Below, piece by piece: positions 10,615 to 35,698 of a DNA stretch of 64,000 bases. The stretch's first letter is position 1, and every line of letters starts with the position of its first letter. The stretch comes from Gemmatimonadales bacterium (GTDB lineage: Bacteria; Gemmatimonadota; Gemmatimonadetes; Longimicrobiales; Gaopeijiaceae), in the NCBI GenBank assembly GCA_050485865.1, contig JBJHCE010000003.1:1506-65505 (forward strand), read 5' to 3'. Below the pieces are notes generated by a model, which was given only the letters and a program-made list of their open reading frames with translations, made no database searches and was not told the origin of the DNA. Made by a program: the position numbers and the translations under genes.

Positions 10615-10617
10615 GCC

Positions 10618-17238: not shown

Positions 17239-18195
17239 TCACCCGGTCTTGTCGAACGGGTCCGCCGCCAGCGCTTCCCTGAGCCGGGGGTGCCTTTTCC
17301 AGAGGTACCAACCCATCCCGACCACGGCGAGGAGGTTCCCCACCGCAATGGACCACCAGGCCAGGGGCCCGAGGAGGAACTCGGCGACCACGGCCAGGAT
17401 CGCGAGGAAGAAGGCCTCGAAGGCCACGAAGAGGAGGACCGCTCCCAGGAGGAGGGGCGGCGTCTTCTCCGACTGCCACACGATGGCCGAGGCAAGGATT
17501 CCCACCGCGAGAAACGCCCCCACGTGGAGGACCGTGTAGCCGAGGACCGTCCACGCCGTCACCTCCACGGCATCGACGCTCGACACGCCGAGAAAGACGG
17601 CGGAGCCGAGGGCCCCCGGGGTGAAGAAGAGCTCCCCCCGCACCGCGTCGAAGAGGAAGAACCAGAAGGCCACGATCCCGGCGCCCACGAGCCCGGCCGT
17701 GACCCCTTCCCGGACGATGCGGTGGTCGGCCATGGCCTCCCACCAGGTCACCGGCCGTGCCTCCCCCGTCAGGTGCAGGTACCCCATGAGCGATACGCCG
17801 GCAATGAGGTTCCCCGCCATGACCTCGAGCCACCCGAGCTCTGCCGCCACGTCCATGCCGGTGACGTAGACCGAGAGGTAGAAGACCGCATCGAAGAGGA
17901 TGAACCCGAGGACGAGGCCGATGAGCACCCCAGGCGCCACCTCGAGCTTCCGCACGAGCCACGTCGCCCCGACCCCAACCACGATCCAGGCCGCGTAGTG
18001 GACGAGGGTGTAGAAGCCGATGGGGATGGCCCCCCGGGCCAGGTCCTCCACCCCCAGGAGGGAGTGGGCCAGGAGGGCCGGGGTCCGGAAGGGCTCCCCC
18101 CGGGCCGCATCCACGAGGAGGAACCAGAGGGCCATGGCGGTGGCACCCACGGCCCCGGCCACTGCTCCACGCACCCACAGCTTCGATTCGTTCAT
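17239..18195 (-). CDS. Eight-TM membrane protein with internal 4+4 TM duplication (unknown family)
   Basis: The two halves align (WFLLVDAARGEPFRTPALLAHSLLGV versus WFFLFDAVRGELFFTPGALGSAVFLGV; YTLVHYAAW versus YTVLHVGAF). The start overlaps the upstream stop (ATGA at 18192-18195). Confidence 0.7.
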   Translation of the reverse strand: MNESKLWVRGAVAGAVGATAMALWFLLVDAARGEPFRTPALLAHSLLGVEDLARGAIPIGFYTLVHYAAWIVVGVGATWLVRKLEVAPGVLIGLVLGFILFDAVFYLSVYVTGMDVAAELGWLEVMAGNLIAGVSLMGYLHLTGEARPVTWWEAMADHRIVREGVTAGLVGAGIVAFWFFLFDAVRGELFFTPGALGSAVFLGVSSVDAVEVTAWTVLGYTVLHVGAFLAVGILASAIVWQSEKTPPLLLGAVLLFVAFEAFFLAILAVVAEFLLGPLAWWSIAVGNLLAVVGMGWYLWKRHPRLREALAADPFDKTG

Positions 18196-18383
18196 GGTCC
18201 GTCTCCCGGCGATGCGGACCCCGGCAAGGACGGTTCCGCCGCCCCGGTGTCCTGGTGGCCGTTCGCCTCCCGCCAGCGGAGGTACACGAGGATCCCGATC
18301 CCCAGGGTGAGGAGAATGGGGACCGAGGCCACGAGGACCCCGCCCCAGAACATCCCCAGCATCAGCCCGTCGTGGTGGTCCAC
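18192..18383 (-). CDS. 63-aa single-TM protein at the tail of the cox operon
   Basis: TM segment GMFWGGVLVASVPILLTLGIGILVYL. It lies 9 nt after the CoxIV stop and is coupled to the next gene. Confidence 0.5.
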   Translation of the reverse strand: MDHHDGLMLGMFWGGVLVASVPILLTLGIGILVYLRWREANGHQDTGAAEPSLPGSASPGDGP

Positions 18384-18392
18384 CGGGTCACC

Positions 18393-18713
18393 TCACCGGA
18401 ACTCCTGGATCACGACCAGGATCAGGATCGCGATCAGGGGAAGGGGGATCGCCGCGAGGATCCACACCCGTCGCTCCTCGAAGCGGAGGTGCATGTAGTA
18501 GAGGGCCACGAGAAGGGCGCTCACGAGGGAGATCGCGACGAGAAGGGTGATGGAAAGCCACTTGGGCATCCCGATGAGGGAGACCCCCACCTTCGCGAAC
18601 ATGAGGACGGCGAGGACCCCCCAGATCATCATGTAGGGTGGAGGGGCGTGCGCCGGGGCCGGGGGGGCTCCCCCCTCCCCTCCTCCCGTGGACGGTTCGG
18701 CGTGCTGCATCAC
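18393..18713 (-). CDS. ctaF: Cytochrome c oxidase subunit IV (prokaryotic COX4-type)
   Basis: About 100 aa with three hydrophobic helices. Its position directly after subunit III and the pattern Y..IW..L..LT..EV-like fit this family. Confidence 0.7.
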   Translation of the reverse strand: MMQHAEPSTGGGEGGAPPAPAHAPPPYMMIWGVLAVLMFAKVGVSLIGMPKWLSITLLVAISLVSALLVALYYMHLRFEERRVWILAAIPLPLIAILILVVIQEFR

Positions 18714-18720
18714 ATCCCCC

Positions 18721-19347
18721 CTAGATCAGGTAGACGATGGTGAAGAGGACGATCCAGACCAGGTCCACGAAGTGCCAGTAGAGACCCATGGCCTCGACGC
18801 CTCCAAGGCGTTTCGAGGTGAAGTCGCCGCGGCGGGCCCTCAGGTAGATCCATACGAGGCAGAGGACCCCGATGGATACGTGGAGCCCGTGGAACCCGGT
18901 CATCAGGTAGAAGGTCGAGCCGTAGAGGGGCCCACCCGCGGCGGCGAAGGCGGCGGCGTTCGGGACGAAGCCGTCGTGGACCAGGTGGATGTACTCGTAG
19001 ACCTGCACGCCCACGAAGAAGCTTCCCAGGAGGATCGTGGCGAGGAGCCACCGCTGGAGCCCCTTCTGGTCGTCGTGCTCGATGGCGGCGAAGGCCTTCA
19101 CCATCGTGACCGAGGAGCAGATCAGGATGAAGGTGTTGAAGGCGGTGAGGGGGACGTTCAGCACCTCGCCGGGGGCGGCGAAGTGGTCCGGGTGGGCAAA
19201 GCGCAGGATGATGTACGCCCCGATCAGCGAGGTGAAGAACATCACCTCCGAGAGGAGGAACACCCACATTCCGAGCTTCGCGTTGTACATGTCGAGGCCC
19301 CGTTCGGGGCGGCGGCCCCCGATCGGGAGGACGGCGGCGTGGCTCAT
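18721..19347 (-). CDS. ctaE: Cytochrome c oxidase subunit III
   Basis: LGMWVFLLSEVMFFTSLIGAY, YLMTGFHGLHVSIGV and YWHFVDLVWIVLF. ATG 19347 overlaps the CoxI stop (ATGA). Confidence 0.9.
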   Translation of the reverse strand: MSHAAVLPIGGRRPERGLDMYNAKLGMWVFLLSEVMFFTSLIGAYIILRFAHPDHFAAPGEVLNVPLTAFNTFILICSSVTMVKAFAAIEHDDQKGLQRWLLATILLGSFFVGVQVYEYIHLVHDGFVPNAAAFAAAGGPLYGSTFYLMTGFHGLHVSIGVLCLVWIYLRARRGDFTSKRLGGVEAMGLYWHFVDLVWIVLFTIVYLI

Positions 19348-21179
19348 GGCGCACCTCCGGGGGCTCCGGCGGGGGCCGGTTCGGGTGGGGGCGGGGGTGG
19401 GCCGCCCGATGCGGGTCCCGGCGGGCCCTCGCGGACGGCCTCCGGGGGCTCGTCCTGGGGGAAGAAGTCCAGGGCGCGGCCGGGCACGCTGTACTCGTAC
19501 GGCCCGCGGTGGACGAGGGGCCAGGTGGGGAAGTTTCCGTGCGGCGGAGGCGAGGGCACCGTCCACTCCAGGGAGTTCGCCCGCCAGGGGTTCGCCTCGG
19601 CCTTCTTCCCCCACCACATCGACAGGAGGAAGTTCGCCGCGAAGATGAGCTGCACGGCGAAGAGGGCGAAGACCGCGTTCGAAATGAAGACGTTCGTTCC
19701 CTGCAGGGGAGCGAGGAAGTCGTACTGGGTCGTGTCGTAGAGGCGGCGCATCATCCCCTGGAGCCCGAGCGAGTGCATCGGGAAGAACACCAGGTTGTAG
19801 AGGACGAAGGTGGCGAAGAAATGCACGTATCCCCAGGTCCGGTTCATCATCCGCCCGAACATCTTCGGGTACCAGTAGATGATCCCGGCGAAGATCGCGA
19901 AGAGGCTCCCGCCGAAAAGGACGTAGTGGATGTGCGCGACGATGAAGTACGTGTCGTGGATGTGGATGTCCACGGGGCTCGACGCCATGAAAATCCCCGA
20001 GAGTCCCCCGATGATGAAGAGGGACACGAAGGCCGCCGCGTGGAGGAAGGGGACGTGGAAATGGATGCTCCCCTTCCAGAGGGTGCCGAGCCAGTTGAAC
20101 ACCTTGATCGCCGAGGGGACCGCGATCACGAGCGTCGTCACCATGAAGGTGGTGCCGAGCATCGGGTTCATCCCGCTCATGAACATGTGGTGTCCCCACA
20201 CGATCCAGCCGAGGAAGGCAATGGCGATGATCGCGAGCACCATGGCGTGGTAGCCGAAGATCGGCTTCCGGGCACCGTTTGCGAGGACCTCCGAGACGAT
20301 CCCGAAGGCCGGGAGGATCAGGATGTAGACCTCCGGGTGGCCGAAGAACCAGAAGAGGTGCTGCCAGAGCAGGGGCTCACCCCCGTGCTCCGGAAGGAAG
20401 AAGGTGGTCCCGAGGGTCTGGTCCGTGAGGAGCATGATGAGCGCCCCCGCCAGGATGGGCATGGCGAGGAGCGCCAGAATCGCGGTGACGAAGAGGGCCC
20501 AGACGGTGAGAGGGAGCCGGAACCAGGTCATTCCCGGGGCACGCATGCTCACGACCGTGGTGATGTAGTTCACCGCTCCCGTGATCGAGCTGAAGCCCAG
20601 GATGAAGAGGGACAGGAGCCAGAGCTGCTGCCCAAGGTAGACCCCGGTGTACTCCCCCGATGCCGAGAGGGGGGCGTAGGCGGTCCATCCGGCACCCGCC
20701 GCTCCGCCCTCCACCAGGAAGCTCGCGAGCATGATGAATCCTGCCGGTACCGCAAGCCAGAACGAGAGCGCGTTCAGCTTCGGGAAGGCCATGTCCGGCG
20801 CCCCGATCTGGAGCGGGATCAGGAGGTTCCCGAAGACCCCCACCAGGAGGGGCATGATCGCGAAGAAGATCATGAAGGTCCCGTGCATGGTCACGAGACT
20901 GTTGTAGAACTCGGGGAGGATGATGCCGCCGGGCGCCATCGTGTCGGGGAGCCCGCCTCCTCCCGGAAGCGGCTGTCCGGGAAAGGCCAGCTGCCACCGC
21001 ATGATCACCGCCAGGAGCCCGCCCAGGAGGAGGAATACGAGGCTCATGACCAGGAACTGCTTCGCGATCATCTTGTGATCGGTGGAGAAGATGTAGGTCC
21101 GGATGAAGCCCGGCTCGTGGTGCCCTTCTCCGGCGAACCCCCCGATGTACCAGTCGGAGGCGGGTTTCGTGGCGCTCAT
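19344..21179 (-). CDS. ctaD: Cytochrome c oxidase subunit I (A-family haem-copper oxidase)
   Basis: STDHKMIAKQF, WFFGHPEVYILILPAFG (CuB His/Tyr region), GHHMF, and HDTYFIVAHIHYVLFGG (haem a/a3 His). It has a proline-rich C-terminal tail. ATG 21179 overlaps the CoxII stop. Confidence 0.95.
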   Translation of the reverse strand: MSATKPASDWYIGGFAGEGHHEPGFIRTYIFSTDHKMIAKQFLVMSLVFLLLGGLLAVIMRWQLAFPGQPLPGGGGLPDTMAPGGIILPEFYNSLVTMHGTFMIFFAIMPLLVGVFGNLLIPLQIGAPDMAFPKLNALSFWLAVPAGFIMLASFLVEGGAAGAGWTAYAPLSASGEYTGVYLGQQLWLLSLFILGFSSITGAVNYITTVVSMRAPGMTWFRLPLTVWALFVTAILALLAMPILAGALIMLLTDQTLGTTFFLPEHGGEPLLWQHLFWFFGHPEVYILILPAFGIVSEVLANGARKPIFGYHAMVLAIIAIAFLGWIVWGHHMFMSGMNPMLGTTFMVTTLVIAVPSAIKVFNWLGTLWKGSIHFHVPFLHAAAFVSLFIIGGLSGIFMASSPVDIHIHDTYFIVAHIHYVLFGGSLFAIFAGIIYWYPKMFGRMMNRTWGYVHFFATFVLYNLVFFPMHSLGLQGMMRRLYDTTQYDFLAPLQGTNVFISNAVFALFAVQLIFAANFLLSMWWGKKAEANPWRANSLEWTVPSPPPHGNFPTWPLVHRGPYEYSVPGRALDFFPQDEPPEAVREGPPGPASGGPPPPPPEPAPAGAPGGAP

Positions 21180-21913
21180 CGGCCTTCCTCGGCGTCGGGT
21201 TCGGGTGCGGGTTCGGAAGGCGCCTGGGCGCGCTGCCCACGGGCCTCCTCGCGGGCTGCGATCCGCTCCGCCTCCCATGCGGCGAAGTCGGCCTCGGACA
21301 GGGCGATCACCCGGCCGTCCATCCGGAAGTGTCCGACCCCGCAGAGTTCGGCGCACCCGAGGGAGTAGTCGCCCGCTTCGGTGACCTCGAACCAGATCGG
21401 GATCGTCATTCCGGGGACCGCGTCCTGTTTCACCCGGAAGGCGGGAACGAAGAAGGAGTGGATCACGTCGGCCGCGGTGAGGTGCACGACGACGGGGCGG
21501 TTCACCGGCACGTGGACCCGGTTCAGGAGGGTGAAGTCGGCATCGGTCCCGAACACCCCGTCACCTCCGGCGTAGCGCGCCTCCCATTCGAACTGCCGGG
21601 CCTCCACGTGGATCTCGTAGGCCCCGTCGGGAAAGCGGGCCGGGTCCTTCACCTCGTCCCAGACGCTCTTGCTCATGAGGCCGAGGGCCACGACGATCAC
21701 GAAGGGAACCGCGGTCCAGGCGATCTCGGCCTTCGTGCTCCCGTGGATGTAGGCCGCCGGCACCCCCTCGCGTCTCCTGTAGCGGAAGAGGAACCAGAAG
21801 AGGAGAAACTGGGTCAGGAGGAACACGACCCCGGTGATCACGAGGATCAGGTAGTACAGCCGGTCGATGTCGGCGGCGTAGGTGGTCACCGCCGTGGGAA
21901 GGGTCCAGTCCAT
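21176..21913 (-). CDS. ctaC: Cytochrome c oxidase subunit II (CuA; no fused cytochrome c domain)
   Basis: Two N-terminal TM helices. CuA ligands are in DVIHSFFVPAFRVKQD and CAELCGVGHFRM. There is no CxxCH anywhere in the protein. Confidence 0.9.
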   Translation of the reverse strand: MDWTLPTAVTTYAADIDRLYYLILVITGVVFLLTQFLLFWFLFRYRRREGVPAAYIHGSTKAEIAWTAVPFVIVVALGLMSKSVWDEVKDPARFPDGAYEIHVEARQFEWEARYAGGDGVFGTDADFTLLNRVHVPVNRPVVVHLTAADVIHSFFVPAFRVKQDAVPGMTIPIWFEVTEAGDYSLGCAELCGVGHFRMDGRVIALSEADFAAWEAERIAAREEARGQRAQAPSEPAPEPDAEEGR

Positions 21914-21917
21914 CCGG

Positions 21918-22691
21918 TTACGCTCCGGCCCGGAAGGTGAAGGAAACCGAGGCCGTCTCGCCGGTGGTCACCGTGACCCGGGCTTCCTGCGTGCCCAGGT
22001 CCGGGTGCCAGGCTTCGAGGAGGTACTCTCCGGGGGGGAGCCGGGCCAGGTTGAAGGTTCCCGCCTCTCCGGTCACCGCGTGGTAGGGGTGGGGGAGGAT
22101 GCCCAGGTAGGCGCCCATCCACCCGTGAACGTCGCAGCGCAGCGGGATCATCACCTCCGGGAGGGGGAAGGTCCGATCCGTGTCCATGTTGACCGGCTGG
22201 CTCACGTTGAAGCCCCGGTTCGTGCTCGGCGTGGCGTTGATGTTGTGCATGAGTCCGTCGGAGTTCCGGAGCGTCACCGTCTGGTTCGTCATCGCTCCCG
22301 CTACCCGTGGGACGTACCGGCACGCCACCTGGTCGATGAGGACGGCCTCGGCGGGGACGGGGAATTCCATTCCCTCGAGCCCCTCCTTCACGTAGACGAA
22401 GACGTCGGCCAGGTGACCGCCACGGACCTTCACGTTCTCCCGGACGGGGGGTTCGTCGTAGCGCTCGAAGCAGGCGCGCTCGCTCTCCATGTCGATGGGC
22501 TCGGGCGCAGGCGGAGTCCCCTCGAACATGACCATGCCGGAGACCGAACCGGCGGTGGCCACGTCGAAGGGCATCTCGGTGACCTGCCGGGCTGCGGGCG
22601 CGGCGTCGTCCCCGCCTCCGCAGGCGGCGACTCCGAGGGCCAGGGCGAGGGCGGCGAAGGGGAGCGTGCAGCGGTGGGTCAGGGTGTTCAT
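21918..22691 (-). CDS. Cupredoxin-like lipoprotein with C-terminal carboxypeptidase-regulatory-like beta-sandwich
   Basis: Lipobox LALGVAAC. A type-1 copper-like ligand set is present: H in DGLMHNINA plus C-x2-H-x2-M in RCDVHGWM. The C-terminal GTFNLARLPPGEYLLEAW is CarboxypepD_reg-like. Confidence 0.6.
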   Translation of the reverse strand: MNTLTHRCTLPFAALALALGVAACGGGDDAAPAARQVTEMPFDVATAGSVSGMVMFEGTPPAPEPIDMESERACFERYDEPPVRENVKVRGGHLADVFVYVKEGLEGMEFPVPAEAVLIDQVACRYVPRVAGAMTNQTVTLRNSDGLMHNINATPSTNRGFNVSQPVNMDTDRTFPLPEVMIPLRCDVHGWMGAYLGILPHPYHAVTGEAGTFNLARLPPGEYLLEAWHPDLGTQEARVTVTTGETASVSFTFRAGA

Positions 22692-24313
22692 GGGTCCTCC
22701 GGGGTCGGAGTTGGGGTGATGCGTTCACGTCGCTGGGCCCGGGCCACCACGAGGAGGCCGAGCCCGCCGGTGAGAACCATCGCGAGGAGGGGAGCCACGA
22801 AGACCGTGGGCGGGGTCTCGGGCTCCAGGTGGATGAAGAACCAGGAGCTGATGGAGCCCCGGGTCCCGTCCTCCCCGTTGTCACCGTCCCAGGCCTGGAA
22901 GGCGATGGGGATCGAGACCCCCTCCACGAAGGTGAGATCGGCGTCGGGATCCGCGGGCTCGAGGGGGCGACGAAGGAGGAGCTCCCATCGGCCGTCATCC
23001 CAGCGGGCCTCGGCAGAGATCCCGGCGCCGGGAATGTCCTGGACGTCGCGGACCCCCCGGGCCCGGGCCCGGACGGCGGTCCCGGGGCGATCGCTGGACC
23101 ACTGCCAGAGGAGGACCGGACTGCGGGCATCGCCCTTCAGGAAGTACGGCCGGTCCATACCCCGGGGGAGTTCAAGGGGGAGCTGAACGGTGATCCGGTC
23201 CGGCCGGGGGCCGGGCTCCGGGGGTTCGCCGTCGTGGGGCTCCATGACCTCGAGGACCCGGGCCTGGAAGTCTGCCCAGAGCGGGTCCGGGCTCCGGGAC
23301 CGATCGTGCCAGGCCAGGTGGAGAACGAGCTCGGCCCCGTCGTGGAAACCCCGGACCTCCACCGCGTTGATCGAGGGATCGAACCAGCGGGGCGCCACGA
23401 TGATCTGGGCCACGAGGGGAATGTGGAACGCCTCGGCCTCGCCCCATCGCGGATCGTCGAGCCCGGTGGGGAGAGTTCCGCCGTCGAGGCGGGGAATCCG
23501 GATCACCTCCCGGATCCGGGGCTCCCGCTCCGGCGAGAGGCTCCGGACGTAGTGGGCAAGGCTCCAGAGTTCGTCGGCGGTGACCACCCCCGCGTCCACG
23601 AGATCGGCGGACGAGGGCATCGGGGTCCCGTCGAGCCCGGTGAGGATCCGCCGGTGGATGTCCTCCACCGAACCCCCTCCGTCGAACCTCCAGTTCCTGG
23701 TGAGGTCAGCGGCGCGAATCGGATAACCCCAGTCATCTTCCAGGGTGGGCGCACTCGACCCGGCACCCCGCCCGGAGTCACCGTGGCACTGCCAGCACTC
23801 GATTCGCTGGAAGACCTCCCGACCCTCGGCGATCCGCTCGGCACTCGCCCTGGGCGCCCGACCGAAGGGGAGGGGGTCGGGCTGCCCGAAGGTCTCGAAC
23901 CCCGGGTAGAAGGTCTTCAGGTACGCCACGAGGGCGTCCCGGTCCCGGCGGGAGAGGTGACGCTCCCACCCGGGCATGGAGGTCCCGGGCATCCCCTTGT
24001 CGATGACGCGCAGGATGTCTGCGTCGGTGGGAAGCTCCCCCCCGGCGGTGGTCCGGACCTGGTAGACCCCCCGGGTGAAGTCCCTCGGGCGGGGAAGCAT
24101 GGTGCCCGCAGCCGGGCCCAGACCGTCGCCCTCGGCCCCGTGGCACGAGGCACACCATCGGTCGTAGAGCTCCCGCCCCCGGTCCAGGTCCTGGGCCTCG
24201 GCCCCTCCCGCCCCGGCGGCGGCCGCGGCCAGGAACCCCGCGCAGGCCAGGCGGCGGCCGGCGGCCGCAGGGATCCGCCACCTGGAAATGGACCCGCCCC
24301 TCCGCATCTCCAT
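22688..24313 (-). CDS. Di-haem cytochrome c fused to an EB_dh-type (ethylbenzene dehydrogenase gamma-like) haem-b domain, C-terminal TM anchor
   Basis: Two CxxCH motifs (CASCH, CWQCH). The distal domain has LHLAWHD...VQLP...GM..PYF...LWQW...W.LLLRRPL...IAFQAWDGDNGE..G..SISSW. TM VFVAPLLAMVLTGGLGLLVVA. The ATG shares one nucleotide with the upstream stop (TGATG at 24311-24315). Confidence 0.7.
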   Translation of the reverse strand: MEMRRGGSISRWRIPAAAGRRLACAGFLAAAAAGAGGAEAQDLDRGRELYDRWCASCHGAEGDGLGPAAGTMLPRPRDFTRGVYQVRTTAGGELPTDADILRVIDKGMPGTSMPGWERHLSRRDRDALVAYLKTFYPGFETFGQPDPLPFGRAPRASAERIAEGREVFQRIECWQCHGDSGRGAGSSAPTLEDDWGYPIRAADLTRNWRFDGGGSVEDIHRRILTGLDGTPMPSSADLVDAGVVTADELWSLAHYVRSLSPEREPRIREVIRIPRLDGGTLPTGLDDPRWGEAEAFHIPLVAQIIVAPRWFDPSINAVEVRGFHDGAELVLHLAWHDRSRSPDPLWADFQARVLEVMEPHDGEPPEPGPRPDRITVQLPLELPRGMDRPYFLKGDARSPVLLWQWSSDRPGTAVRARARGVRDVQDIPGAGISAEARWDDGRWELLLRRPLEPADPDADLTFVEGVSIPIAFQAWDGDNGEDGTRGSISSWFFIHLEPETPPTVFVAPLLAMVLTGGLGLLVVARAQRRERITPTPTPEDP

Positions 24314-27716: not shown

Positions 27717-29053
27717 GCCTTCCCTCCCCGCCCGAGGAAGAAGGGGAGCCGCTTCGAGAAGTCCACCGGCATCTCCTCCCGGACCCGGGCCATCAGCGCC
27801 TCGTCCACGACCGCCACCCCCCGGTCCCGGGCAAAGCGCTCCACCCGGTCCACCACCACCCCCCGGACGAAGCTCGGAATCCGCTCCACCCGGGCCCGGG
27901 CGCCTTCGGTCCAGGGGAGTGCCGGCTCGGGGATCGAGGCCCCGTAGGTGACCGACGCGCGCGGGCGGACAAGGGGCTCGTCCCCGTCCGGCTCGTACGC
28001 GCACGAGAGGTCCGGCCCGAGGAGGTCGCCGGTCTCGGCAAAGGCCCGGGCGCGACACCCCCCGCACACCTCCCGGTACGCGCACCGCCCGCACTTTCCG
28101 CCGGGCGTTCCTTCACGAAGGGCCTGGAACACCGCGGAAGTGCGCCAGATCTCGCCGAAGGAGGCCTCCGCCAGGTCCCCCGCCTCCACCGGGGAGTAGG
28201 GACAGGGCGTCACCTTCCCCTCGGGAGTGATGCGGCAGTACTGGAGCCCGCAGGGACACCGGGTCCGGTAGTTCAGGAGGGGGGAGTCCGGCTCCCCGGC
28301 GTGGGCGAGGCGCATGAGCTGCGGCTGGCACTTCGAGCGAACCAGCATCCGGCCCCGGAAGCGGGCCTCGAGGGCCAGGAGCTCCTCCAGGACCTCCTCG
28401 TTCTCCGCGGGGGAGAGCCCCTGCATCCCCGACCCCCGCCCGGTGGGAACGAGGAAATAGAGGTTGAAGGCCACGGCACCCATTTCGGCGGCCCAGGCCA
28501 CGAGTCCCGGGAGCTCGTCCCGGTTTCCCCGGGTGAGGCTCGTCTGCACGATGAAGTCGAGGCCGTGGCGCCCGAGTCGCTCCACCGCGGCAAGGGTATC
28601 GGAGAGGGCGCCCGAGCCGTGGCGAAAGCGGTCGTGGTACGCGGGGCGGAGCGAGTCCACGCTCACCGCCACGCCCTGCACCCCCGCTTCCATGAGCGAC
28701 CGGATCCGGGTGTCCGTGAGACGCGTTCCGTTCGTACCCACCACCACCGTGGCGCCCCCTTCCGTGGCCCGGGAGGCGAGAAGCTCCAGGTCGTCGCGAA
28801 GGAGGGGCTCCCCGCCGGAGAGGATCAGCATCGGCGCGGGGCTCACCTCCAGGATCTCTCCGAGGATGCGGAGGCATCGGTCCGTCGGGAGCTCGTCGGC
28901 CGCGGCGTGCCAGGACCCGGCCGCGATGTAGCAGTGGGCGCACGCCAGGTTGCAACGCTTCGTCAGGTTCCAGGCCACCACGTGGGGAACGGGCGGGGCA
29001 GGCTCCGACACCGGCGTGGACGGCGCTTCGTCGAGCGCCCGGGCGAGGCTCAC
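27713..29053 (-). CDS. Radical SAM/SPASM enzyme of the NirJ/AhbC/AhbD (tetrapyrrole side-chain) type with a C-terminal PCP_red-like domain
   Basis: CNLACAHCY (CxxxCxxC), SGGEPLL, NLYFLVPTGRG, and a Cys-rich tail CPCGLQYC...PCPY...GKCGRCAYREVCGGCRARA. The C terminus is LPWTEGARARVERIPSFVRGVVVDRVERFARDRG. The GTG start overlaps the upstream stop (GTGA at 29050-29053). Confidence 0.8.
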   Translation of the reverse strand: MSLARALDEAPSTPVSEPAPPVPHVVAWNLTKRCNLACAHCYIAAGSWHAAADELPTDRCLRILGEILEVSPAPMLILSGGEPLLRDDLELLASRATEGGATVVVGTNGTRLTDTRIRSLMEAGVQGVAVSVDSLRPAYHDRFRHGSGALSDTLAAVERLGRHGLDFIVQTSLTRGNRDELPGLVAWAAEMGAVAFNLYFLVPTGRGSGMQGLSPAENEEVLEELLALEARFRGRMLVRSKCQPQLMRLAHAGEPDSPLLNYRTRCPCGLQYCRITPEGKVTPCPYSPVEAGDLAEASFGEIWRTSAVFQALREGTPGGKCGRCAYREVCGGCRARAFAETGDLLGPDLSCAYEPDGDEPLVRPRASVTYGASIPEPALPWTEGARARVERIPSFVRGVVVDRVERFARDRGVAVVDEALMARVREEMPVDFSKRLPFFLGRGGKA

Positions 29054-31035
29054 GCCTCCTCCTCCATGAATCGTTCCACCGCCGCCCTTGCCTCGGCGGG
29101 TGTCGCCGTCTTCATGTCCACCGGGCACTTCTCGACCTGGGCCTCGACATCGCGGATCGGACACCGGGTGACCCCCTGGGCCTTCGCCTCCTCGATGAAT
29201 TTCCTCATCTCGGGCGAGAGCCCGTCCACCCCCTCGGCCGCGGCCTTGAGCTGCTTCGTCTGGAGCTCGCGGAACATGACGAGCATGGTGTCCATGTCGA
29301 ACTCGTCGGCCTCGATCATGGCCTGCTTGTTCTCGTCCATGACCCGGGTCGTGACCCGCCAGAGGTCGTGTTCCTTCGCGAAGCGCTCCACGGTGTTGCG
29401 GGCCAGGGGGCGCGCGATCAGGGGCACGGCCCGAAGGCGTTCGAAGGCTTCCGCGGTCCAGACCACCGGGTCGGTGGCGGTACGCTCCCGGGACTGGCTA
29501 TGCCCCGTGTAGGGGCACGCCACGGTCACCGTGGGGACCTCGGGCTCGGGGTCCGCGTCCACCCCTTCCACCACGGTCCGCCGCATCGCCTCCTCCGCCT
29601 TCACCTCGGCCAGGGCAAGCTCTTCGGCGGTCCCGATCCCCATGATCATCTGCATGTGGGTGGGAAGGAGCTTCCGGATCGCCTCGTCGAGGCGGTCGCC
29701 GGTCACGGTGGGAAGCGCATGTCCCCCGTTCCCGTACTCCTCGAGGACGAACTCCTCCACCGCCTTCCGGGCGATCCCCAGGGCGAAGGGCGGCACCCGG
29801 AGGATCCGCACCTCGGCGTCGGGGGCCCACTCGAGCCCCTGTTCCCCGTCTTCCTCGATCCAGGGGATCTCGTCGGGGCGGACGTCGGTGGTCCCCACGA
29901 GGAGCACGTTCGCAGGCGTGAGGCGGCAGAGGTTCTCGGCCTGGGAACCCAGATCGGTGCCGTCGATCCGGTGCCCCCCGTGCCGCGCCATCACGACGAG
30001 CGAGGGGTCGAGCTCCTCCACCCACTGGAGGATGCACTGGAAGGGCTTCCCGATCAGGATCTGGGTCTCCACCTCCACGTCGGGGAACTCGGAGGCCATG
30101 ACCTGCGCCCGCTTGAGGTTCGCCTGGCAGAGCTTCAGGAGCCCCTTGTCGATGATGTTGTTGTGAAGGGCTTCCTGCTCCTCGAACTTGAAGACCTTCG
30201 CGGCCTGCGCCGAGAGCACGTCCTTGATGTTGCCGAAGACGACGTGGTGATACTCCACGTCGAAGGCGGAGCAGACGTGGAGCTTCGCCCCGAACTCCCG
30301 GGCGAGTTCGAGGGCCACCCGCATCGCCTTGTACGCGTAGGAGGAGCCGTCCACGCATACGATCCAGGATCCGCCCTCGAGCGGTCGGTCGTTCCGGACG
30401 ATCAGGGTGTCCCGTTCGACCTTCCGGATGACCCGGGCGGTGACGCCCCCGAGCTGTGAGAGGGGCTGGAGGCCGATTCCGTGGGCGCCGATGCAGAGGA
30501 GGTCGTATTCACGACCGCTCTCGCCCGCGAGCTTCTCGTCCTGCTCCTCGTCCTCGGCCACGATCCGTCCGTCCGCCCCGAGGCGAACGTCGCTCCGGAC
30601 CGTCGTACCCCCGTCGTACTTGTCGGCGATGTTGGGATCGAAGCCGATGAGACTGGGAAGGCGCCCCGCTCCCCGGTTCGCCTCACGGATGATCTCCTCG
30701 TAGTTGATTCCCTCGAGGAGCTGCCGTGCAAGGGGGACTCCGGCCTCCCGGCACCGCCGTTCCGTCTGGTCCAGGAAGGAGTCCGAGATGAGCTGGAGCC
30801 CCTTCTCGATCAGCTTGTCGTGGACCTTCCGCTGCCGCCGGATCTCTTCCGGGGTCTGGAACTGTGCAGGGAGACCGGTTTCGAGCTGCCGGAACCGGAC
30901 GTCGTGAAGCCGGGCGGCGTAGACGTGGTTTCCGGTGATCCGGCCGTCGGACCTGCGGCAGAGCTCCACCGCACGGTTCACGGCCCAGCTGGAATGGTCG
31001 GAGTTGTCGACCGGAACGAGGACTTCGCGGTACAT
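29050..31035 (-). CDS. Tandem universal-stress-protein (USP) domains fused to two PCP_red-like domains
   Basis: USP-1 is MYREVLVPVDNSDHS...LLCIGAHG...VIRKVERDTLIV. USP-2 is WIVCVDGSSYAYKA...VVMARHGGH...GSQAENLCRLTPANVLLV. These are followed by EWAPDAEVRILRVPPFALGIARKAVEEFVLEE and VVWTAEAFERLRAVPLIARPLARNTVERFAKEHD. A GAGG Shine-Dalgarno precedes ATG 31035. Confidence 0.8.
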   Translation of the reverse strand: MYREVLVPVDNSDHSSWAVNRAVELCRRSDGRITGNHVYAARLHDVRFRQLETGLPAQFQTPEEIRRQRKVHDKLIEKGLQLISDSFLDQTERRCREAGVPLARQLLEGINYEEIIREANRGAGRLPSLIGFDPNIADKYDGGTTVRSDVRLGADGRIVAEDEEQDEKLAGESGREYDLLCIGAHGIGLQPLSQLGGVTARVIRKVERDTLIVRNDRPLEGGSWIVCVDGSSYAYKAMRVALELAREFGAKLHVCSAFDVEYHHVVFGNIKDVLSAQAAKVFKFEEQEALHNNIIDKGLLKLCQANLKRAQVMASEFPDVEVETQILIGKPFQCILQWVEELDPSLVVMARHGGHRIDGTDLGSQAENLCRLTPANVLLVGTTDVRPDEIPWIEEDGEQGLEWAPDAEVRILRVPPFALGIARKAVEEFVLEEYGNGGHALPTVTGDRLDEAIRKLLPTHMQMIMGIGTAEELALAEVKAEEAMRRTVVEGVDADPEPEVPTVTVACPYTGHSQSRERTATDPVVWTAEAFERLRAVPLIARPLARNTVERFAKEHDLWRVTTRVMDENKQAMIEADEFDMDTMLVMFRELQTKQLKAAAEGVDGLSPEMRKFIEEAKAQGVTRCPIRDVEAQVEKCPVDMKTATPAEARAAVERFMEEEA

Positions 31036-31418
31036 CGGCACCTCGGGCCTTGAGCCTGAGCACCCCCGCAACCGGCCCCAGGGCGGGCAGGGGCCCAGGA
31101 TCTGGGCCATACCCGTCCTCAGGAGCCCCGGGACAAGCCCGGGGACCCACGCTCCGCCCTCGGCGGAGCACGGACGCTGCGACCGGCACGAAGGGGACGG
31201 GACGTTCCCGCCCACTCACGCTCAAACCGGGCATCCACGCGTTGTGCTCGCTTCTGCCCGACGACCGCCTCCCTCCGGGAGGGGGCGGACCGTGACCGAG
31301 GTTTGCTGTTGTCGCTTCGGGAGGGGGCCCTGTCTGCAGGTCGTGCGAGGCACATCGTGCCGGGACCCGCGGGCTGCACCCGTCCCCGGGGACCGTCCCC
31401 GGGGTGTGCGACGACGCC

Positions 31419-31448
31419 AACATAGAGGACCCTTTCCGGGGATGTCAA
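31419..31448 (-). promoter_or_regulatory. Sigma-70-like promoter candidate TTGACA-N18-TATGTT
   Basis: Minus-strand TTGACA (31448-31443), an 18-nt spacer and TATGTT (31424-31419), inside a locally AT-enriched patch. It would give a ~375-nt leader before the USP gene start at 31035. Confidence 0.4.
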
Positions 31449-31479
31449 CGGAAATGTTCTTTTCCGCTCCATGCGCGGT

Positions 31480-32223
31480 TCATCCGCGGAGTCCCGCGAC
31501 CCGTCCCACGAGCCCTCGAGCCGCCAGGAGGGAGATCCCCGCCAGGAGCAGGGTGGAGAGTGCGGGGCCGAACCAGTGGACGAGGGCCGCCGCCCCTGGA
31601 ACGGTCCCGGTGGCGCCTGGCGGCCCGCTCGCCACCCGGAGGAGCTCCCGATGAAGGGGGCCGAAGGGAAGGAGCGCCTCGAACCGGGCTCCCCAGCCCC
31701 CGGCCTGCGCCGTGCGGAACACGCCGGACCCGTGGAGGAGGAAGAGGGTGGCCACCGCGGCGAAGAGGGCGCCCTCCGCCATGGACCGCGCGGCGGAGGC
31801 GACCCACAGTCCCACGAGGTTCGCCGCCGCGAGGGCAAGGGCGAGGGTCGCGGCAAGGACCAGGAAGTCGCGGGCTCCGCCACCCGACAGGGCCACGATC
31901 AGGATCACCGATGGCGAGAGCTGGACCAGGTCCACCCCCACCTGGGCCGCGGTCCGCTCGACCACGAACCGGCCCGGCGGAAGCCCGGTCATGACGACCC
32001 TGCCCAGGAAGCCCGATTCAGCATCCCGGAGCACCGGGATCGCGGAACCCATGGTTCCGAAGAGGACGAAGAGCACGGCGTAGACCGCTGCCGCGTGGAA
32101 CGCAGGTGCCGCACCGAGCGCCAGCGGAACCACGAGAAGAAGGGGCACGCCGACGTTCAGGGCGAAGAGGCGCTTCCGCCGAAGCGAAAGGCGCCACTCG
32201 AGCCGTGCCAGGGCGCCCCTCAC
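31480..32223 (-). CDS. ABC-2-type transporter permease
   Basis: About 6 hydrophobic helices. The GTG start overlaps the ATPase stop (GTGA at 32220-32223). Confidence 0.65.
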   Translation of the reverse strand: MRGALARLEWRLSLRRKRLFALNVGVPLLLVVPLALGAAPAFHAAAVYAVLFVLFGTMGSAIPVLRDAESGFLGRVVMTGLPPGRFVVERTAAQVGVDLVQLSPSVILIVALSGGGARDFLVLAATLALALAAANLVGLWVASAARSMAEGALFAAVATLFLLHGSGVFRTAQAGGWGARFEALLPFGPLHRELLRVASGPPGATGTVPGAAALVHWFGPALSTLLLAGISLLAARGLVGRVAGLRG

Positions 32224-33230
32224 GGTGCCCCTCCCCCCGCCCCGTGCCCGTCCTCCGTCGGATCCGGCGACCCACGGCCCGGCACCGGTCCGGTGACCCC
32301 GGTCATATCCTCCAGGACCGCCTCCAGCCCTGCCTCCCGGACCCGGACCTCGGCCACGGCGACCCCGGACTCGAGCAGCCGTGCCAGGAGTCCCGGGAGG
32401 ACGGTCTCGAGGGGAACGCCGCCGGGGTCGGTCCGGAACTCCAGGGATCCGTCGGCTCGCCTTTTCTCGAGGGTGACCCCGGGAAGGTCGATTCCGCGCT
32501 CCCACCCCGGCTCCTCCACCCCCTCGGCAAGGGTCACGAAGACCCGGGTGCGACCGTGCATCCTCTCGAGGAGTCCCGAAGGCGGTGCGTCCGCCAGGAC
32601 CCGCCCCCGGTGCAGGACCACGACCCGGTCGAACCCCGGTGCCAGTCGAGCCAGGTCATGCGTCGCCACCACGATCGCCGTCCCCGCCCCGGCTTCCTCC
32701 CGCGCCGCTTCCTCCAGGGCCGTCACCCCCGAGTGGTCGAGCCCTACCGTGGGCTCGTCCAGCACCAGGAGGCCCGCCGCGCTCCCGAAGGCCTCGGCAA
32801 GGACGAGGCGCCGCCGCATTCCGGAGGAGTACGACTCCACCGACCGGTCCGCCACATCGGACAGCCCGAAGGCGTCGATCCAGCGTTCGACGTGCCCCGG
32901 ACCTCTCCCCCGGAACGCCTGGAAGGCCCCGAGGTGCTCCCGCCCCGTGAGGGCGCCTGCGAAGACCGGTACGTCGGGAGCCATGGCGATCCGGCGGCGC
33001 AGCGCCGGGAGCTCGGAGCCTCGCGGCGGCCTGGACGCCCCGAACCACCGGATCTCCCCGCCCGTGGGCGAGAGCGCGGTGGCAAGAAGGCGGAGGAGGG
33101 TCGACTTCCCGGCGCCATTCACCCCGACCACGGCCACCCGTTCTCCCGCCGCCACCCCCAGATCGATCCCCTCCACCCCGGCCTCCCCCCCGGGCCACCG
33201 CAGCGCAAGGTCTCGGGCCTGGACGACCAC
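32220..33230 (-). CDS. ABC transporter ATP-binding protein (ABC-2/DrrA-like with C-terminal extension)
   Basis: Walker A GVNGAGKST, signature YSSGMRRRL, Walker B LLVLDEPTVGLD and H-loop ATHD. The GTG start abuts the upstream TAG stop. Confidence 0.9.
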   Translation of the reverse strand: MVVQARDLALRWPGGEAGVEGIDLGVAAGERVAVVGVNGAGKSTLLRLLATALSPTGGEIRWFGASRPPRGSELPALRRRIAMAPDVPVFAGALTGREHLGAFQAFRGRGPGHVERWIDAFGLSDVADRSVESYSSGMRRRLVLAEAFGSAAGLLVLDEPTVGLDHSGVTALEEAAREEAGAGTAIVVATHDLARLAPGFDRVVVLHRGRVLADAPPSGLLERMHGRTRVFVTLAEGVEEPGWERGIDLPGVTLEKRRADGSLEFRTDPGGVPLETVLPGLLARLLESGVAVAEVRVREAGLEAVLEDMTGVTGPVPGRGSPDPTEDGHGAGGGAP

Positions 33231-33677
33231 CTACATGCCTTCCAGGCCCAGGTCGGTCCGGGCCCGATCCATGACCTCCGGCGAGATCGTCCCGATCCCA
33301 TGCTCCCGGGCGTAGTCGGTGTAGATCCGCTTCACCATTCCGCGAACGAACCCCGGCACCCCCTGGAGGCGGAGCACCGCCTCCTCCGTCCAGATCACCG
33401 GGATCGGCGTCGTCGGAGCCGACGTGTCGACGAAGGCATCACTCCGCCCGCCATCGAGGGAGCCGCGCACCGTTTCGAAGGGCTGGGCAGGGACCTCCCT
33501 CCCGCCGACCTTCACCCCCATGGTGCTCACGAGCTGGGTCTCCATCGGGTTCGTGAGCAGCGCCATTTCCCTTGCACACCCGGGGCACCGGAAGAGGGTG
33601 GCCATCGTCCCGTCGCCGGGGAGGCGCCGCTCGGCGTAGGCCATGACCTGGTCGCAGGGGATGCAGAGGAATTTCAT
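33231..33677 (-). CDS. Zn-ribbon + PCP_red-like domain protein
   Basis: N-terminal CIPC...CPGC ribbon. The C-terminal domain is VIWTEEAVLRLQGVPGFVRGMVKRIYTDYAREHG. The ATG overlaps the Mrp stop (ATGA at 33674-33677). Confidence 0.7.
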   Translation of the reverse strand: MKFLCIPCDQVMAYAERRLPGDGTMATLFRCPGCAREMALLTNPMETQLVSTMGVKVGGREVPAQPFETVRGSLDGGRSDAFVDTSAPTTPIPVIWTEEAVLRLQGVPGFVRGMVKRIYTDYAREHGIGTISPEVMDRARTDLGLEGM

Positions 33678-34609
33678 GGTCCCTTCTCCTCGCCACCCGG
33701 CGCCGGGGGCGAGGCACCGACTCCAGGGTCCGTTCCTCCGTCGCCGGCCGCCCCCAGCGCGGCCAGGAGCTTCGCTGCAAGGCCCTCGAAGCGGGTCGAG
33801 TCCGGAGCCCCTGCATCGGTGCTGGAGCCGGCACCGGGGTCCAGGGGAATGGATGCCCAGAGGGGGAGGCCGTAGCGAAGGCGAAGGCCTTCTCCCCCTT
33901 CGCCGGGGAAGAGGGCGTGGATCTCCCCGCATCCGGGACAGCGGAACCCGTCCATGTTCGACACGAGTCCCGTGATCGGGACGCCCGCCTCGACCACGAG
34001 CCGGAGCGAGCGGGCCACGACCGCCTCGGAGAGCGTCCCCGGCGTCGTCACCACCACCGCGGCGTGAAGCCCGGGAACGAGCTCAAGGAGCCTTGCGATC
34101 TTGTCCGTTCCGGGCGGAACGTCCACGAGCAGCAGGTCCAGCTCGCCCCACGCCACGTCCCCCAGGAACTCACGGAGGGCCGAGGTCTCGACCGTGCTCT
34201 GCCACAGGTGCCCATGGCCCCCGGGTCCCCGCCAGCGAAGGGGAGCATCGTCCCCTCCCTGGAGAAGCTCCATCGAGATGACCCGGACCCCGGATGCGCC
34301 CGTGGCGGGCTCGATCCCGCCCGAGCCCTCCCCGAGCCTCGCCTCCCGTACCCCGAGCATCCGCGCCATGGAAGGGCCGTTCAGGTCCGCATCCACCACC
34401 CCCACCCGCTTCCCCGCCCCGCCAAGCGCCGACGCGAGTCCCGCGGTCACGAAGCTTTTCCCGACCCCCCCCTTCCCACTCACGATGGCCACGATCGCCC
34501 CGACCCGGGCGAGCCGGCCGGCCAGGCGGGCGTGCTGGTCCAGCACCTGCTCGAGGAGCCCGGAGCCGGTCTCGTGCTCCACCTCGTTGTACGTCCGGAA
34601 CGGGCGCAT
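33674..34609 (-). CDS. Mrp/NBP35/ApbC-family Fe-S cluster carrier ATPase
   Basis: Deviant Walker A SGKGGVGKS, DADLNGPS, and the CPGC cluster-bridging motif (FRCPGCGEIH). Confidence 0.9.
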   Translation of the reverse strand: MRPFRTYNEVEHETGSGLLEQVLDQHARLAGRLARVGAIVAIVSGKGGVGKSFVTAGLASALGGAGKRVGVVDADLNGPSMARMLGVREARLGEGSGGIEPATGASGVRVISMELLQGGDDAPLRWRGPGGHGHLWQSTVETSALREFLGDVAWGELDLLLVDVPPGTDKIARLLELVPGLHAAVVVTTPGTLSEAVVARSLRLVVEAGVPITGLVSNMDGFRCPGCGEIHALFPGEGGEGLRLRYGLPLWASIPLDPGAGSSTDAGAPDSTRFEGLAAKLLAALGAAGDGGTDPGVGASPPAPGGEEKGP

Positions 34610-34623
34610 CCGGAACCCCCGGG

Positions 34624-34869
34624 TCAGGGTGCGAGGAGACGGCCTTCGCCGTCGTGCAGGGTGATGGCGTCGACCGGGCAACTCCGGCACACCCGAACGA
34701 GGGCGTCGCGATCCAGCGCTCCGATCCCATCCCGGAAGACCGCGATCCCGTCGGCGTCGAGGGCAAAGGCCCCGGGCGCCGCATCGAGGCAGTCTCCGAA
34801 CCCGACGCAGATCTGCCGATCGATCCGGGCAACGAGGGCCCCGATCCTGCGCTCCTCGATTCCTTCCAC
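34624..34869 (-). CDS. Small ferredoxin (single cluster, probably 3Fe-4S type)
   Basis: 81 aa. CVGFGDC (C-x2-F-x2-C, middle ligand missing) and a distal CP (CRSCPVDAI), resembling the Fer4_13/15 family. Confidence 0.75.
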   Translation of the reverse strand: MEGIEERRIGALVARIDRQICVGFGDCLDAAPGAFALDADGIAVFRDGIGALDRDALVRVCRSCPVDAITLHDGEGRLLAP

Positions 34870-35032: not shown

Positions 35033-35698
35033 ATGAGCGTTCTCGAAGTGCCCCGTTCCCGTCCCCGGAAAGGGGTGGTCGCCGGCGTCGCCCTGGGCGT
35101 CGGAGCCCTGGCCGTGGCCTTCGTGGGCTTCTCCCTGGCGCGTCCAACCCCGGAGACCTTCCTCCCCTCCCCGACGGTGCCCCTTCCGGCCCCGCCGCTC
35201 CAGCCGGGGCAGCACAGCCTCACCGTCGACGCCTCGGACCCGGACCGATGGGTGCACGTCTCGCTCCGGCACGGAACGGTGGTGGAACGGCCGGCACCCC
35301 TCGACTGGGACCTGGCGTTCAGGCGGTTCCAGGTCATCGTGAACGGCGGCGAGGGATTCGCCGGAAGGGCGGCCATGACCTTGCTTGATGCACCGGGGCT
35401 CGAGGGGATCGAAGCCGATGCGCTCGCGCGGGTCCCGCCCGACCACTTCGTCCAGACCCGTGTCCGGAGCGACTCCACCCTCGCGGAGCTTCCCCGGTGG
35501 TACGACTACTCCTTCCTGTCGCACCTCCTCACCCCCCGCCCGGGCGTGTACGCGGTTCGCCTGGCCGACGGAGGGCACGCCCTCCTCGAATACCGTGGGT
35601 ACTACTGCCCGGGACCGACCCCCGGATGCGTCACCTTCCGCTTCCTCCTCCCGGAGGAGGGGGAGGCAAGGGATCCGGCTCCGCCTCCACCTCCGTGA
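35033..35698 (+). CDS. Membrane-anchored HmuY-like domain protein (tentative)
   Basis: N-terminal TM VVAGVALGVGALAVAFVGF. The signature DWDLAFRRFQVIVNGG is one I associate with the HmuY family. The track ORF start (33917) is an antisense over-extension. Confidence 0.5.
   Translation: MSVLEVPRSRPRKGVVAGVALGVGALAVAFVGFSLARPTPETFLPSPTVPLPAPPLQPGQHSLTVDASDPDRWVHVSLRHGTVVERPAPLDWDLAFRRFQVIVNGGEGFAGRAAMTLLDAPGLEGIEADALARVPPDHFVQTRVRSDSTLAELPRWYDYSFLSHLLTPRPGVYAVRLADGGHALLEYRGYYCPGPTPGCVTFRFLLPEEGEARDPAPPPPP

Follow-up and report, generated by a model that had tools for sequence, protein, structure and literature searches.

Do eighteen tightly packed genes on one strand form a single operon, and do their products act together? 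This question is raised by a 17.6-kb train of minus-strand genes (positions 17239-34869) in a 64,000-nucleotide (nt) stretch of DNA, referred to here as the window, from contig JBJHCE010000003.1 of a Gemmatimonadales bacterium (C3:1506-65505 of a 3.63-Mb genome in 361 contigs, 97.9% complete and about 72% G+C). An earlier note on this DNA had read the train as a respiratory supra-operon made in fixed stoichiometry. Our analysis suggests, with moderate confidence, that the train is an optional respiratory module of Gemmatimonadota, made up of two adjacent operons that are inherited together and that would work as set out below. The notion of a co-inherited functional unit was retained, whereas that of a single operon was given up in view of a conserved, promoter-bearing break and of overlaps that are not conserved between species.

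Gene Content of the Block

A gene caller trained genome-wide on codon log-odds, Shine-Dalgarno motifs and start-codon weights returned the same 18 minus-strand genes that had been described before, and 15 of the 18 had a Pfam or NCBIfam match. Genes 1-16, numbered from the upstream end, and the break between genes 5 and 6 are as follows (aa, amino acids).

34624..34869, minus strand: gene 1, single-cluster 4Fe-4S ferredoxin of 81 aa (Pfam Fer4_15, E 8e-9)
33674..34609, minus strand: gene 2, Mrp/NBP35/ApbC-type Fe-S cluster carrier ATPase (Pfam ParA/NUBPL PF10609, E 7e-61)
33231..33677, minus strand: gene 3, protein of 148 aa combining a CxxC...CxxC (Zn) ribbon at the N-terminus with a C-terminal PCP_red domain (Pfam PCP_red, E 1e-13)
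32220..33230, minus strand: gene 4, ABC transporter ATPase, a variable accessory (Pfam ABC_tran, E 3e-26)
31480..32223, minus strand: gene 5, ABC-2 type permease, a variable accessory (Pfam ABC2_membrane, E 4e-8)
31036..31479, minus strand: non-coding break of 444 bp with a sigma-70-like promoter and a structured leader of about 380 nt
29050..31035, minus strand: gene 6, cytoplasmic Usp-Usp protein of 661 aa with two PCP_red-like segments (Pfam Usp, E 1e-32; PCP_red, E 2e-13)
27713..29053, minus strand: gene 7, AhbD/NirJ2-like radical SAM/SPASM enzyme fused to PCP_red (Pfam Radical_SAM, SPASM and PCP_red)
25908..27716, minus strand: gene 8, CydA-like membrane haem protein of the OR-N2 "bd-like" type (Pfam Cyt_bd_oxida_I PF01654, E 7e-23)
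25110..25907, minus strand: gene 9, membrane-anchored dihaem cytochrome c (two CxxCH motifs, N-terminal transmembrane segment, Pfam Cytochrom_C)
24313..25113, minus strand: gene 10, monohaem cytochrome c with three transmembrane segments (one CxxCH motif, Pfam Cytochrome_CBB3)
22688..24313, minus strand: gene 11, dihaem cytochrome c joined to an EB_dh domain (EbdC/NxrC-like, haem b), with a C-terminal transmembrane anchor (Pfam Cytochrome_CBB3, twice)
21918..22691, minus strand: gene 12, lipoprotein (lipobox) whose type-1 cupredoxin domain is joined to a CarboxypepD_reg beta-sandwich at the C-terminus
21176..21913, minus strand: gene 13, CoxB, CuA site complete and fused cytochrome c absent (165 bits with NCBIfam CoxB, which exceeds the cut-off)
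19344..21179, minus strand: gene 14, CoxA, subunit I of an A-family haem-copper oxidase, a module-specific paralogue (Pfam COX1, E 8e-150)
18721..19347, minus strand: gene 15, CoxC, subunit III (Pfam COX3, E 5e-28)
18393..18713, minus strand: gene 16, CoxD, subunit IV, start uncertain (18713 or 18632; Pfam COX4_pro, NCBIfam caa3_sub_IV)

Conservation of Gene Order and Joint Inheritance

Gene content, gene order and co-occurrence were read directly from the assemblies. One genome per species was scanned with an alignment of eight CydA-like sequences as the query. The loci compared comprised nine from three families of the same order, together with the 80 best of at least 570 genomes with a CydA-like relative. 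All of these 80 best loci belonged to Gemmatimonadota, and the resulting 89 species-level loci came from at least two orders. When the synteny check proposed in the earlier note was run on them, genes 6-16 had an identical order and strand in 89/89 Gemmatimonadota loci, as far as the contigs reach. Directly upstream, the genes for Mrp, PCP_red and ferredoxin (the ferredoxin standing first or last) were present in the 80 loci wherever the contig extends.

Five markers (the CydA-like protein, Usp-PCP_red, cytochrome c/EB_dh, the cupredoxin and the cox1 orthologue) were then scored in 41 relatives. All five were present in 10 relatives besides this genome, and about 25 of the 41 had none, including two members of the same genus whose assemblies are 92-95% complete. 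The five partial cases were fragmentary or incomplete assemblies. Relatives G032 (Usp-PCP_red only) and G024 (without Usp or cox) were considered as exceptions to co-occurrence and set aside, since their contigs end inside the module. On a broader scale, the CydA-like orthologue was detected in 116 of 400 Gemmatimonadota genomes that are at least 90% complete, with family counts of 28/30, 4/4, 50/166, 29/72 and 1/95. The collinearity and the joint presence and absence across relatives support the earlier claim that the genes act together and are not chance neighbours.

The cox1 gene followed the module closely. Its identity was bimodal across the 41 relatives, at 69-89% in those bearing the module and at most 51% for every other match, indicating that the oxidase is a private paralogue of the module and not the housekeeping enzyme. 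Elsewhere in the genome we detected three more COX1 loci, cytochrome b, a complete alternative complex III (ACIII), CtaA and ChdC. The presence of further oxidases together with ACIII, CtaA and ChdC suggested that the module is an optional extra and not part of the core respiratory chain. The genes of the complete ACIII (actA-F) lie on contig C2 at 54148-61701 (minus strand), with no cox genes after them, and provide a conventional quinol:cytochrome c step in addition to the module.

Two Predicted Transcription Units

The break at 31036-31479 separates genes 1-5 (unit 1) from the genes beginning with Usp-PCP_red (unit 2). It contains the sequence TTGACA-N18-TATGTT at 31448-31419, which was the only promoter-like site in 19.5 kb. 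Across species, the gap before Usp-PCP_red was never 20 nt or shorter (n = 56 loci); it ranged from 31 to more than 1000 nt and mostly exceeded 100 nt, and the medians of the other junctions across the 80 loci were -4 to 42 nt. Promoter hexamers matching at least 10 of the 12 consensus positions (TTGACA-N16-18-TATACT or TATAAT) were found in about 28 of 55 orthologous gaps, usually 220-380 nt upstream of the start codon. Because the gap is conserved and a near-consensus promoter precedes Usp-PCP_red, we concluded that the block probably consists of two adjacent transcription units, with the boundaries drawn from motifs and spacing.

The leader itself (31036-31412, minus strand) carries G+C-rich palindromic hairpins, with a folding z of -4.05 relative to shuffles. 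No sequence conservation of this leader was found in 15 other species. When 16 orthologous leaders were aligned, the promoter hexamers and the ribosome-binding site were the only conserved parts, and the idea of a conserved regulatory RNA was dropped for this reason. An Rfam search of positions 16500-36500 gave no match at E <= 1; the 444-bp leader is therefore no riboswitch of a known class.

Transcription of all 18 genes as one mRNA from upstream of the ferredoxin gene, with the overlaps setting subunit ratios, would agree with the single strand used throughout and with the opposite-strand genes at both ends. Twelve of the 17 junctions are too tight to hold signals, and terminator-like hairpins were found neither at any junction nor before the gap promoter, their total not exceeding that of shuffled controls. 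We nevertheless consider a single supra-operon quite unlikely. The gap is conserved at the lengths given above, and around half of the species have a near-consensus promoter in it. The overlaps vary from locus to locus (0-6 of 10 outside this window), and the ABC pair and gene 18 come, go or move. By our reasoning, 1:1 ratios would also make little sense for the half of the products that are enzymes or chaperones.

Junctions and Overlap Density

Each of the 12 junction strings reported earlier read as claimed on the minus strand.

Genes 2/3 to 7/8, minus strand: ATGA at 33674-33677; TAG/GTG at 33230/33231; GTGA at 32220-32223; GTGA at 29050-29053; ATGA at 27713-27716
Genes 8/9 to 11/12, minus strand: TGA/ATG at 25907/25908; GTGA at 25110-25113; TGATG at 24311-24315; ATGA at 22688-22691
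Cox end, minus strand: ATGA at 21176-21179, 19344-19347 and 18192-18195

The remaining gaps, given earlier as 4-14 nt apart from one of 444 bp, were found to be 14, 444, 4, 7 and 9 nt. Our gene caller departed from the earlier models at the cox4 start alone (18632 instead of 18713), which changes a 7-nt gap to 88 nt. The assignment of position 34869 to the start of the Mrp gene had to be corrected, as the gene starting there encodes the ferredoxin and Mrp covers 33674-34609. A GGAG/GAGG/AGGA motif stands upstream of 14 of the 18 starts, compared with 49% genome-wide. Residue 1 of the orthologues coincided with the start in seven genes (ferredoxin, Mrp, PCP_red, Usp-PCP_red, cytochrome c1, CoxB and CoxC), the Usp-PCP_red start at 31035 agreeing with residue 1 in eight relatives.

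We asked how unusual these junctions are. Among the 1915 same-strand neighbour pairs of the genome, 30.8% are separated by 0 nt or less and 23.3% share a 4-nt overlap; when only pairs at most 30 nt apart are counted, the share at 0 nt or less is 61%. Twelve of 17 junctions at 0 nt or less therefore gave a binomial P of 9e-4 against all pairs and of 0.19 against the pairs at most 30 nt apart. The locus is the most overlap-rich set of 18 consecutive genes in the assembly (12 overlaps, versus 9 for the next best elsewhere), and as a run of at least 10 genes with gaps of 15 nt or less it is tied with two other loci in the genome. The close packing is genuine and, by the measure of this genome, extreme, and the junction type itself is normal for a compact high-G+C genome. 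Operons for nuo, atp and ribosomal proteins likewise contain at least 10 same-strand genes with 4-nt or 1-nt overlaps, and comparable overlap runs occur in this genome on contigs C1, C7 and C138; the present block differs from them in its conserved promoter-bearing break and in products that include maturation enzymes besides the subunits of a complex.

The packing was then compared across 35 loci in which all eleven genes from Usp-PCP_red to cox4 are contiguous. Between zero and six of the ten junctions were at 0 nt or less in these loci (median 3), whereas the number here was eight; the summed spacer for the same eleven genes had a median of 329 nt, against 11 nt here. A same-genus relative was packed about as tightly. 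The junctions that overlapped most often across species were ABC ATPase/permease (100%) and Mrp/PCP_red (81% of 52 loci), followed by cytochrome c2 to cytochrome c/EB_dh (67%) and radical SAM to CydA-like (57%). The loosest junction inside unit 2 was the one before the cupredoxin gene (median 42 nt, with 33% above 100 nt). The overlap density is thus a lineage-specific local compaction and not a defining feature of the system. Because the overlaps are not conserved across loci, the argument from coupling to fixed stoichiometry does not generalise, and fixed stoichiometry is unlikely for the enzymes and chaperones of the block (radical SAM, Mrp, Usp, ABC). For annotation, this means that in a high-G+C genome an overlap-rich train gives weak grounds for calling a single operon.

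The same figures bear on a further alternative, namely that the genes are adjacent without joint function and that the overlaps reflect nothing but compaction in a compact high-G+C genome. The 4-nt overlap is indeed the commonest junction, close pairs mostly overlap or abut, and the extreme tightness is specific to this lineage. Compaction would not explain an identical order in 89 loci, joint presence and absence, or a cox1 paralogue restricted to the module, and we regard mere adjacency as highly improbable.

Tetrapyrrole-Type Proteins and the OR-N2 Core

The best NCBIfam models for the gene 7 product were NirJ2 and AhbD (full length, E 1e-81). With AhbD/NirJ it shares the CxxxCxxC radical SAM core and the SPASM domain; it differs in a score of about half of the cut-offs and in its extra C-terminal PCP_red domain, and the genome has ChdC for coproheme decarboxylation. 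Judged by these scores, it appears to be a relative and not a member of the AhbD/NirJ equivalogs. A role as general supplier of haem b was considered for this enzyme and dropped, since the genome has ChdC and about 70% of the phylum does without the module. Another AhbD-like radical SAM gene, without PCP_red, lies on contig C12 (28956-37958) and scores 309 bits to TIGR04545. It adjoins genes for a small ScdA_N-like protein (recognised by eye), two small transmembrane proteins, one of which has a weak COX1-like match, and a Crp/Fnr-type regulator. The same contig also carries, divergent from this group, a nosZ-nosL-nosD nitrous oxide reductase cluster.

The cluster encodes four PCP_red segments, and the sole other strong one in the genome belongs to BchB. 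Outside such proteins, the domain is known as the C-terminal part of BchB. A tetrapyrrole-binding role for the PCP_red segments is suggested by the fact that the domain belongs to BchB, which is encoded here with BchN and BchH. The BchN, BchB and BchH genes are located on contig C30 at 7197-13792 (plus strand) inside a 13-gene same-strand run, and given these genes the organism may make bacteriochlorophyll.

The gene 8 product is the only CydA homologue of the genome. Its residues 52-259 align to the solved CydA 5doq_A, including the positions equivalent to His19, FFFE and His186, and a crude hydropathy scan gave about 13-15 transmembrane segments. No CydB partner (PF02322) was detected anywhere in the 97.9%-complete genome, the cluster included. 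The three cytochrome c genes that follow contribute 2 + 1 + 2 CxxCH motifs (genes 9-11), and the gene 10 product is homologous to that of a partner gene in Nitrospirota clusters. The EB_dh domain of gene 11 (Pfam EB_dh, E 1e-15; NCBIfam DMSO_red_II_gam) is the sole one in the genome.

The gene 12 lipoprotein is a type-1 (blue) cupredoxin by its modelled fold and its ligand residues. H149 and the C186-x2-H189-x2-M192 motif were invariant in 41 orthologues. The AlphaFold model had a pLDDT of 90.9, and Foldseek matched its fold to amicyanin, pseudoazurin and plastocyanin with a probability of 1.0 and a TM-score of about 0.7.

The Dedicated aa3-Type Oxidase

The cupredoxin gene sits directly upstream of CoxB, in which we observed the CuA motif H...CAELCGVGHFRM. 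Family matches show that genes 13-16 encode subunits I-IV of an A-family (aa3-type) cytochrome c oxidase, with CuA in subunit II. CoxA reached 641 bits against NCBIfam CtaD, for which the cut-off is 671. In five relatives (G016, G020, G021, G023 and G024) the housekeeping-type cox1 paralogue, which is 47-48% identical to the module CoxA, contains one or two in-frame TGA codons within the matched region; a gene boundary, a frameshift or recoding are candidate causes.

Comparison with Known Systems

Complexes of the bd-like (OR-N2) kind were first noted in Nitrospira in 2010. Nitrite oxidisers, anammox bacteria and manganese oxidisers contain them in abundance and express them strongly; to our knowledge, none has been purified or given a reaction. 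Outside Gemmatimonadota, the closest relatives of the gene 8 product were CydA-like proteins of Nitrospirota and Nitrospinota (40-49% identity). OR-N2 cydA operons typically carry several cytochromes c and an EbdC homologue, the electron donor being unknown (Murali, Gennis & Hemp, 10.1101/2021.01.16.426971). In Nitrospira moscoviensis, bd-like_3 is accompanied by two membrane cytochromes c and alt_NxrC_2 and is highly transcribed (Mundinger et al. 2019, PMC6606698), and the Candidatus Manganitrophus genome has bd-like clusters TO_1 to TO_4 (Yu et al., PMC9040806).

The present cluster agrees with the OR-N2 clusters, including Nitrospira bd-like_3 and the Manganitrophus TO_1 type, in having a CydA without CydB, followed by cytochromes c and a cytochrome c/EbdC-like protein; the order is kept, and the partner genes are homologous in Nitrospirota loci. 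Nearest relatives and partner genes indicate that genes 8-11 represent an OR-N2 "bd-like" core, a known but uncharacterised kind. In contrast to those clusters, the Gemmatimonadota core is always preceded by ferredoxin-Mrp-PCP_red, Usp-PCP_red and radical SAM-PCP_red genes and followed by the cupredoxin lipoprotein and a complete aa3 oxidase. Neither cox genes nor Usp-PCP_red or radical SAM-PCP_red genes were seen in the Nitrospirota/Nitrospinota contexts examined (L102-L105), where the core or a fused variant is either solitary or accompanied by MrpD-like or Rieske/cytochrome b partners.

What is new is the fixed linkage of an OR-N2 core to a cupredoxin, a private aa3 oxidase and radical SAM/PCP_red/Mrp/ferredoxin genes. 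Among the papers listed in literature searches on PCP_red/PF08369 and on Gemmatimonadetes/Gemmatimonadota with cytochrome bd or bd-like oxidases, none described the composite cluster in its title or abstract. In Nitrospira sp. Kam-Ns4a, a CarboxypepD_reg protein is encoded just upstream of a cytochrome c gene and another bd-like CydA gene (L104 2394-5482); this neighbour hints that the partnership with a beta-sandwich lipoprotein predates the arrangement found in Gemmatimonadota.

This context narrows the roles of the core to electron input to the oxidase or that of a partner oxidase, and predicts a special cofactor requirement for the core. It also implies that CydA-like genes of this kind should not be named "cytochrome bd ubiquinol oxidase subunit I".

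Proposed Working of the Module

Unit 1 (ferredoxin, Mrp and the Zn-ribbon/PCP_red protein, here with the ABC-2 exporter pair) would be a cofactor-supply set. The ferredoxin could act as reductant and Mrp as cluster loader for a three-cluster radical SAM enzyme, while the small PCP_red protein (gene 3) may be the carrier of the substrate and the optional ABC-2 pair its exporter. The membrane haem proteins would then receive a haem-type cofactor completed or handed on by the radical SAM and PCP_red proteins. Electrons would enter the OR-N2 core and pass over the five c-haems, haem b and the cupredoxin to the CuA site of the aa3 oxidase and on to O2. Inside each unit, the ATGA/GTGA overlaps would ensure co-translation in this lineage. 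These functional steps are what we infer from the genes present, as are the direction in which electrons move and what the radical SAM enzyme acts on.

Several points weigh against the two-operon module and this scheme. With ACIII, ChdC and CtaA in the genome, general quinol oxidation and the synthesis of haem b and haem a can proceed without the module. The near-consensus promoter is found in about half, not all, of the orthologous gaps, and since no terminator lies between the end of the ABC-2 gene and the gap promoter, read-through from unit 1 is possible. The radical SAM protein falls under the AhbD/NirJ equivalog cut-off (274 bits versus 500 for TIGR04545 and TIGR04055), and the tetrapyrrole role suggested for PCP_red comes solely from the place of the domain in BchB. 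Only the N-terminal part of the gene 8 product aligns to solved CydA, leaving the canonical quinol site and Q-loop unaligned. Finally, the OR-N2 core may itself reduce O2 instead of feeding the aa3 oxidase.

This last point leads to the main alternative, in which one operon encodes two terminal oxidases: the core would be an O2 reductase that shares the cytochrome c/cupredoxin donors with the aa3 enzyme, providing high- and low-affinity branches controlled by a single promoter. The aligned His19- and His186-equivalent ligands and the FFFE glutamate context fit such a role. Murali et al. (10.1101/2021.01.16.426971) class OR-N proteins as oxygen reductases with cytochrome c as a possible donor, and Nitrospira, which is without haem-copper oxidases, is thought to use a bd-like oxidase (PMC6606698). 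However, no OR-N2 protein is known to reduce O2. The similarly composed Nitrospira bd-like_3 with alt_NxrC_2 was proposed as a quinone-pool link and not as an oxidase, in a cluster that is conserved in Nitrospina and anammox bacteria (PMC6606698). The core is moreover always accompanied by a complete aa3 oxidase, which a self-sufficient oxidase would not need, and we judge the two-oxidase arrangement unlikely.

A narrower form of the electron-input scheme compares the core with better-known operons. In ACIII-caa3 and qcrCAB-ctaCDEF operons, one strand encodes a membrane input complex and an A-family oxidase along with c-haems or a small carrier. The block resembles them in that an electron-input complex is encoded beside its cytochrome c oxidase, and it differs in that the input is CydA-like and not an NrfD/Mo-type or Rieske/cytochrome b complex. 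The core could accordingly be a third kind of quinol:cytochrome c (or cupredoxin) oxidoreductase, in the position of ACIII or bc1. The gene logic of input complex, small carrier and oxidase without a cytochrome c, which generally resembles act-cox and qcr-cta, would favour this, as would the quinone-pool link suggested for the homologous Nitrospira/anammox cluster (PMC6606698). On the other hand, no quinol-binding Q-loop aligns, and with a complete ACIII and cytochrome b already present the chain has no missing step for the core to supply; we remain rather doubtful of this version.

Within the preferred reading of an optional two-operon module, we tentatively suggest a self-contained supercomplex, in which electrons from quinol or a periplasmic donor enter through the OR-N2 core as a third type of oxidoreductase acting on cytochrome c or cupredoxin. 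The core would be hard-wired to its own aa3 oxidase and served by a dedicated AhbD-like radical SAM/PCP_red/Mrp/ferredoxin pathway for making or inserting a specialised haem. If this were true, the Gemmatimonadota, which have cultured members, would offer a way to settle the role of bd-like complexes.

Variable Genes and Boundaries of the Block

The ABC pair (genes 4-5) was matched in 16 of the 89 loci compared, and in loci without it an unassigned open reading frame (ORF) of about 130 aa, or the ferredoxin gene, comes after PCP_red. The ferredoxin gene was kept either before Mrp or after PCP_red. Mrp scored 197 bits against NCBIfam MrpORP, under the equivalog cut-off. The two genes at the downstream end and the gene that marks the upstream end are given below.

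18192..18383, minus strand: gene 17, 63-aa protein with a single transmembrane segment (tblastn match downstream of cox4 in two of the nine relatives' loci compared first)
17239..18195, minus strand: gene 18, 318-aa membrane protein with eight helices (4+4), linked to the cluster in variable position
35051..35698, plus strand: HmuY-family protein of haem-binding type with an N-terminal membrane anchor, divergent from the ferredoxin gene

The gene 17 product had no family match in the Pfam/NCBIfam scan and a weak blastp match to a called gene in a third relative's locus. The gene 18 product gave neither a Pfam match nor a PDB fold match (AlphaFold pLDDT 83). In relatives it is usually encoded nearby; it may precede the head of the cluster, lie downstream or occupy the other strand. 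Haem A synthase was considered for gene 18 and rejected, since CtaA is present elsewhere and each half has a single conserved His.

Opposite-strand genes bound the block on both sides, with none inside it. At the upstream end, the HmuY-family gene had a Pfam HmuY match of E 4e-9 (37.2 bits, cut-off 27) and a positive coding score on the plus strand. HmuY homologues adjoin the cluster, upstream or downstream, in 25 of the 80 Gemmatimonadota loci. At the downstream end, a 73-aa ORF (16986-17207, plus strand) is convergent with gene 18. This ORF separates the respiratory block from a phenolic-lipid-type operon just downstream (13674-16800, minus strand), which consists of a type III polyketide synthase gene, a methyltransferase gene and a third gene.

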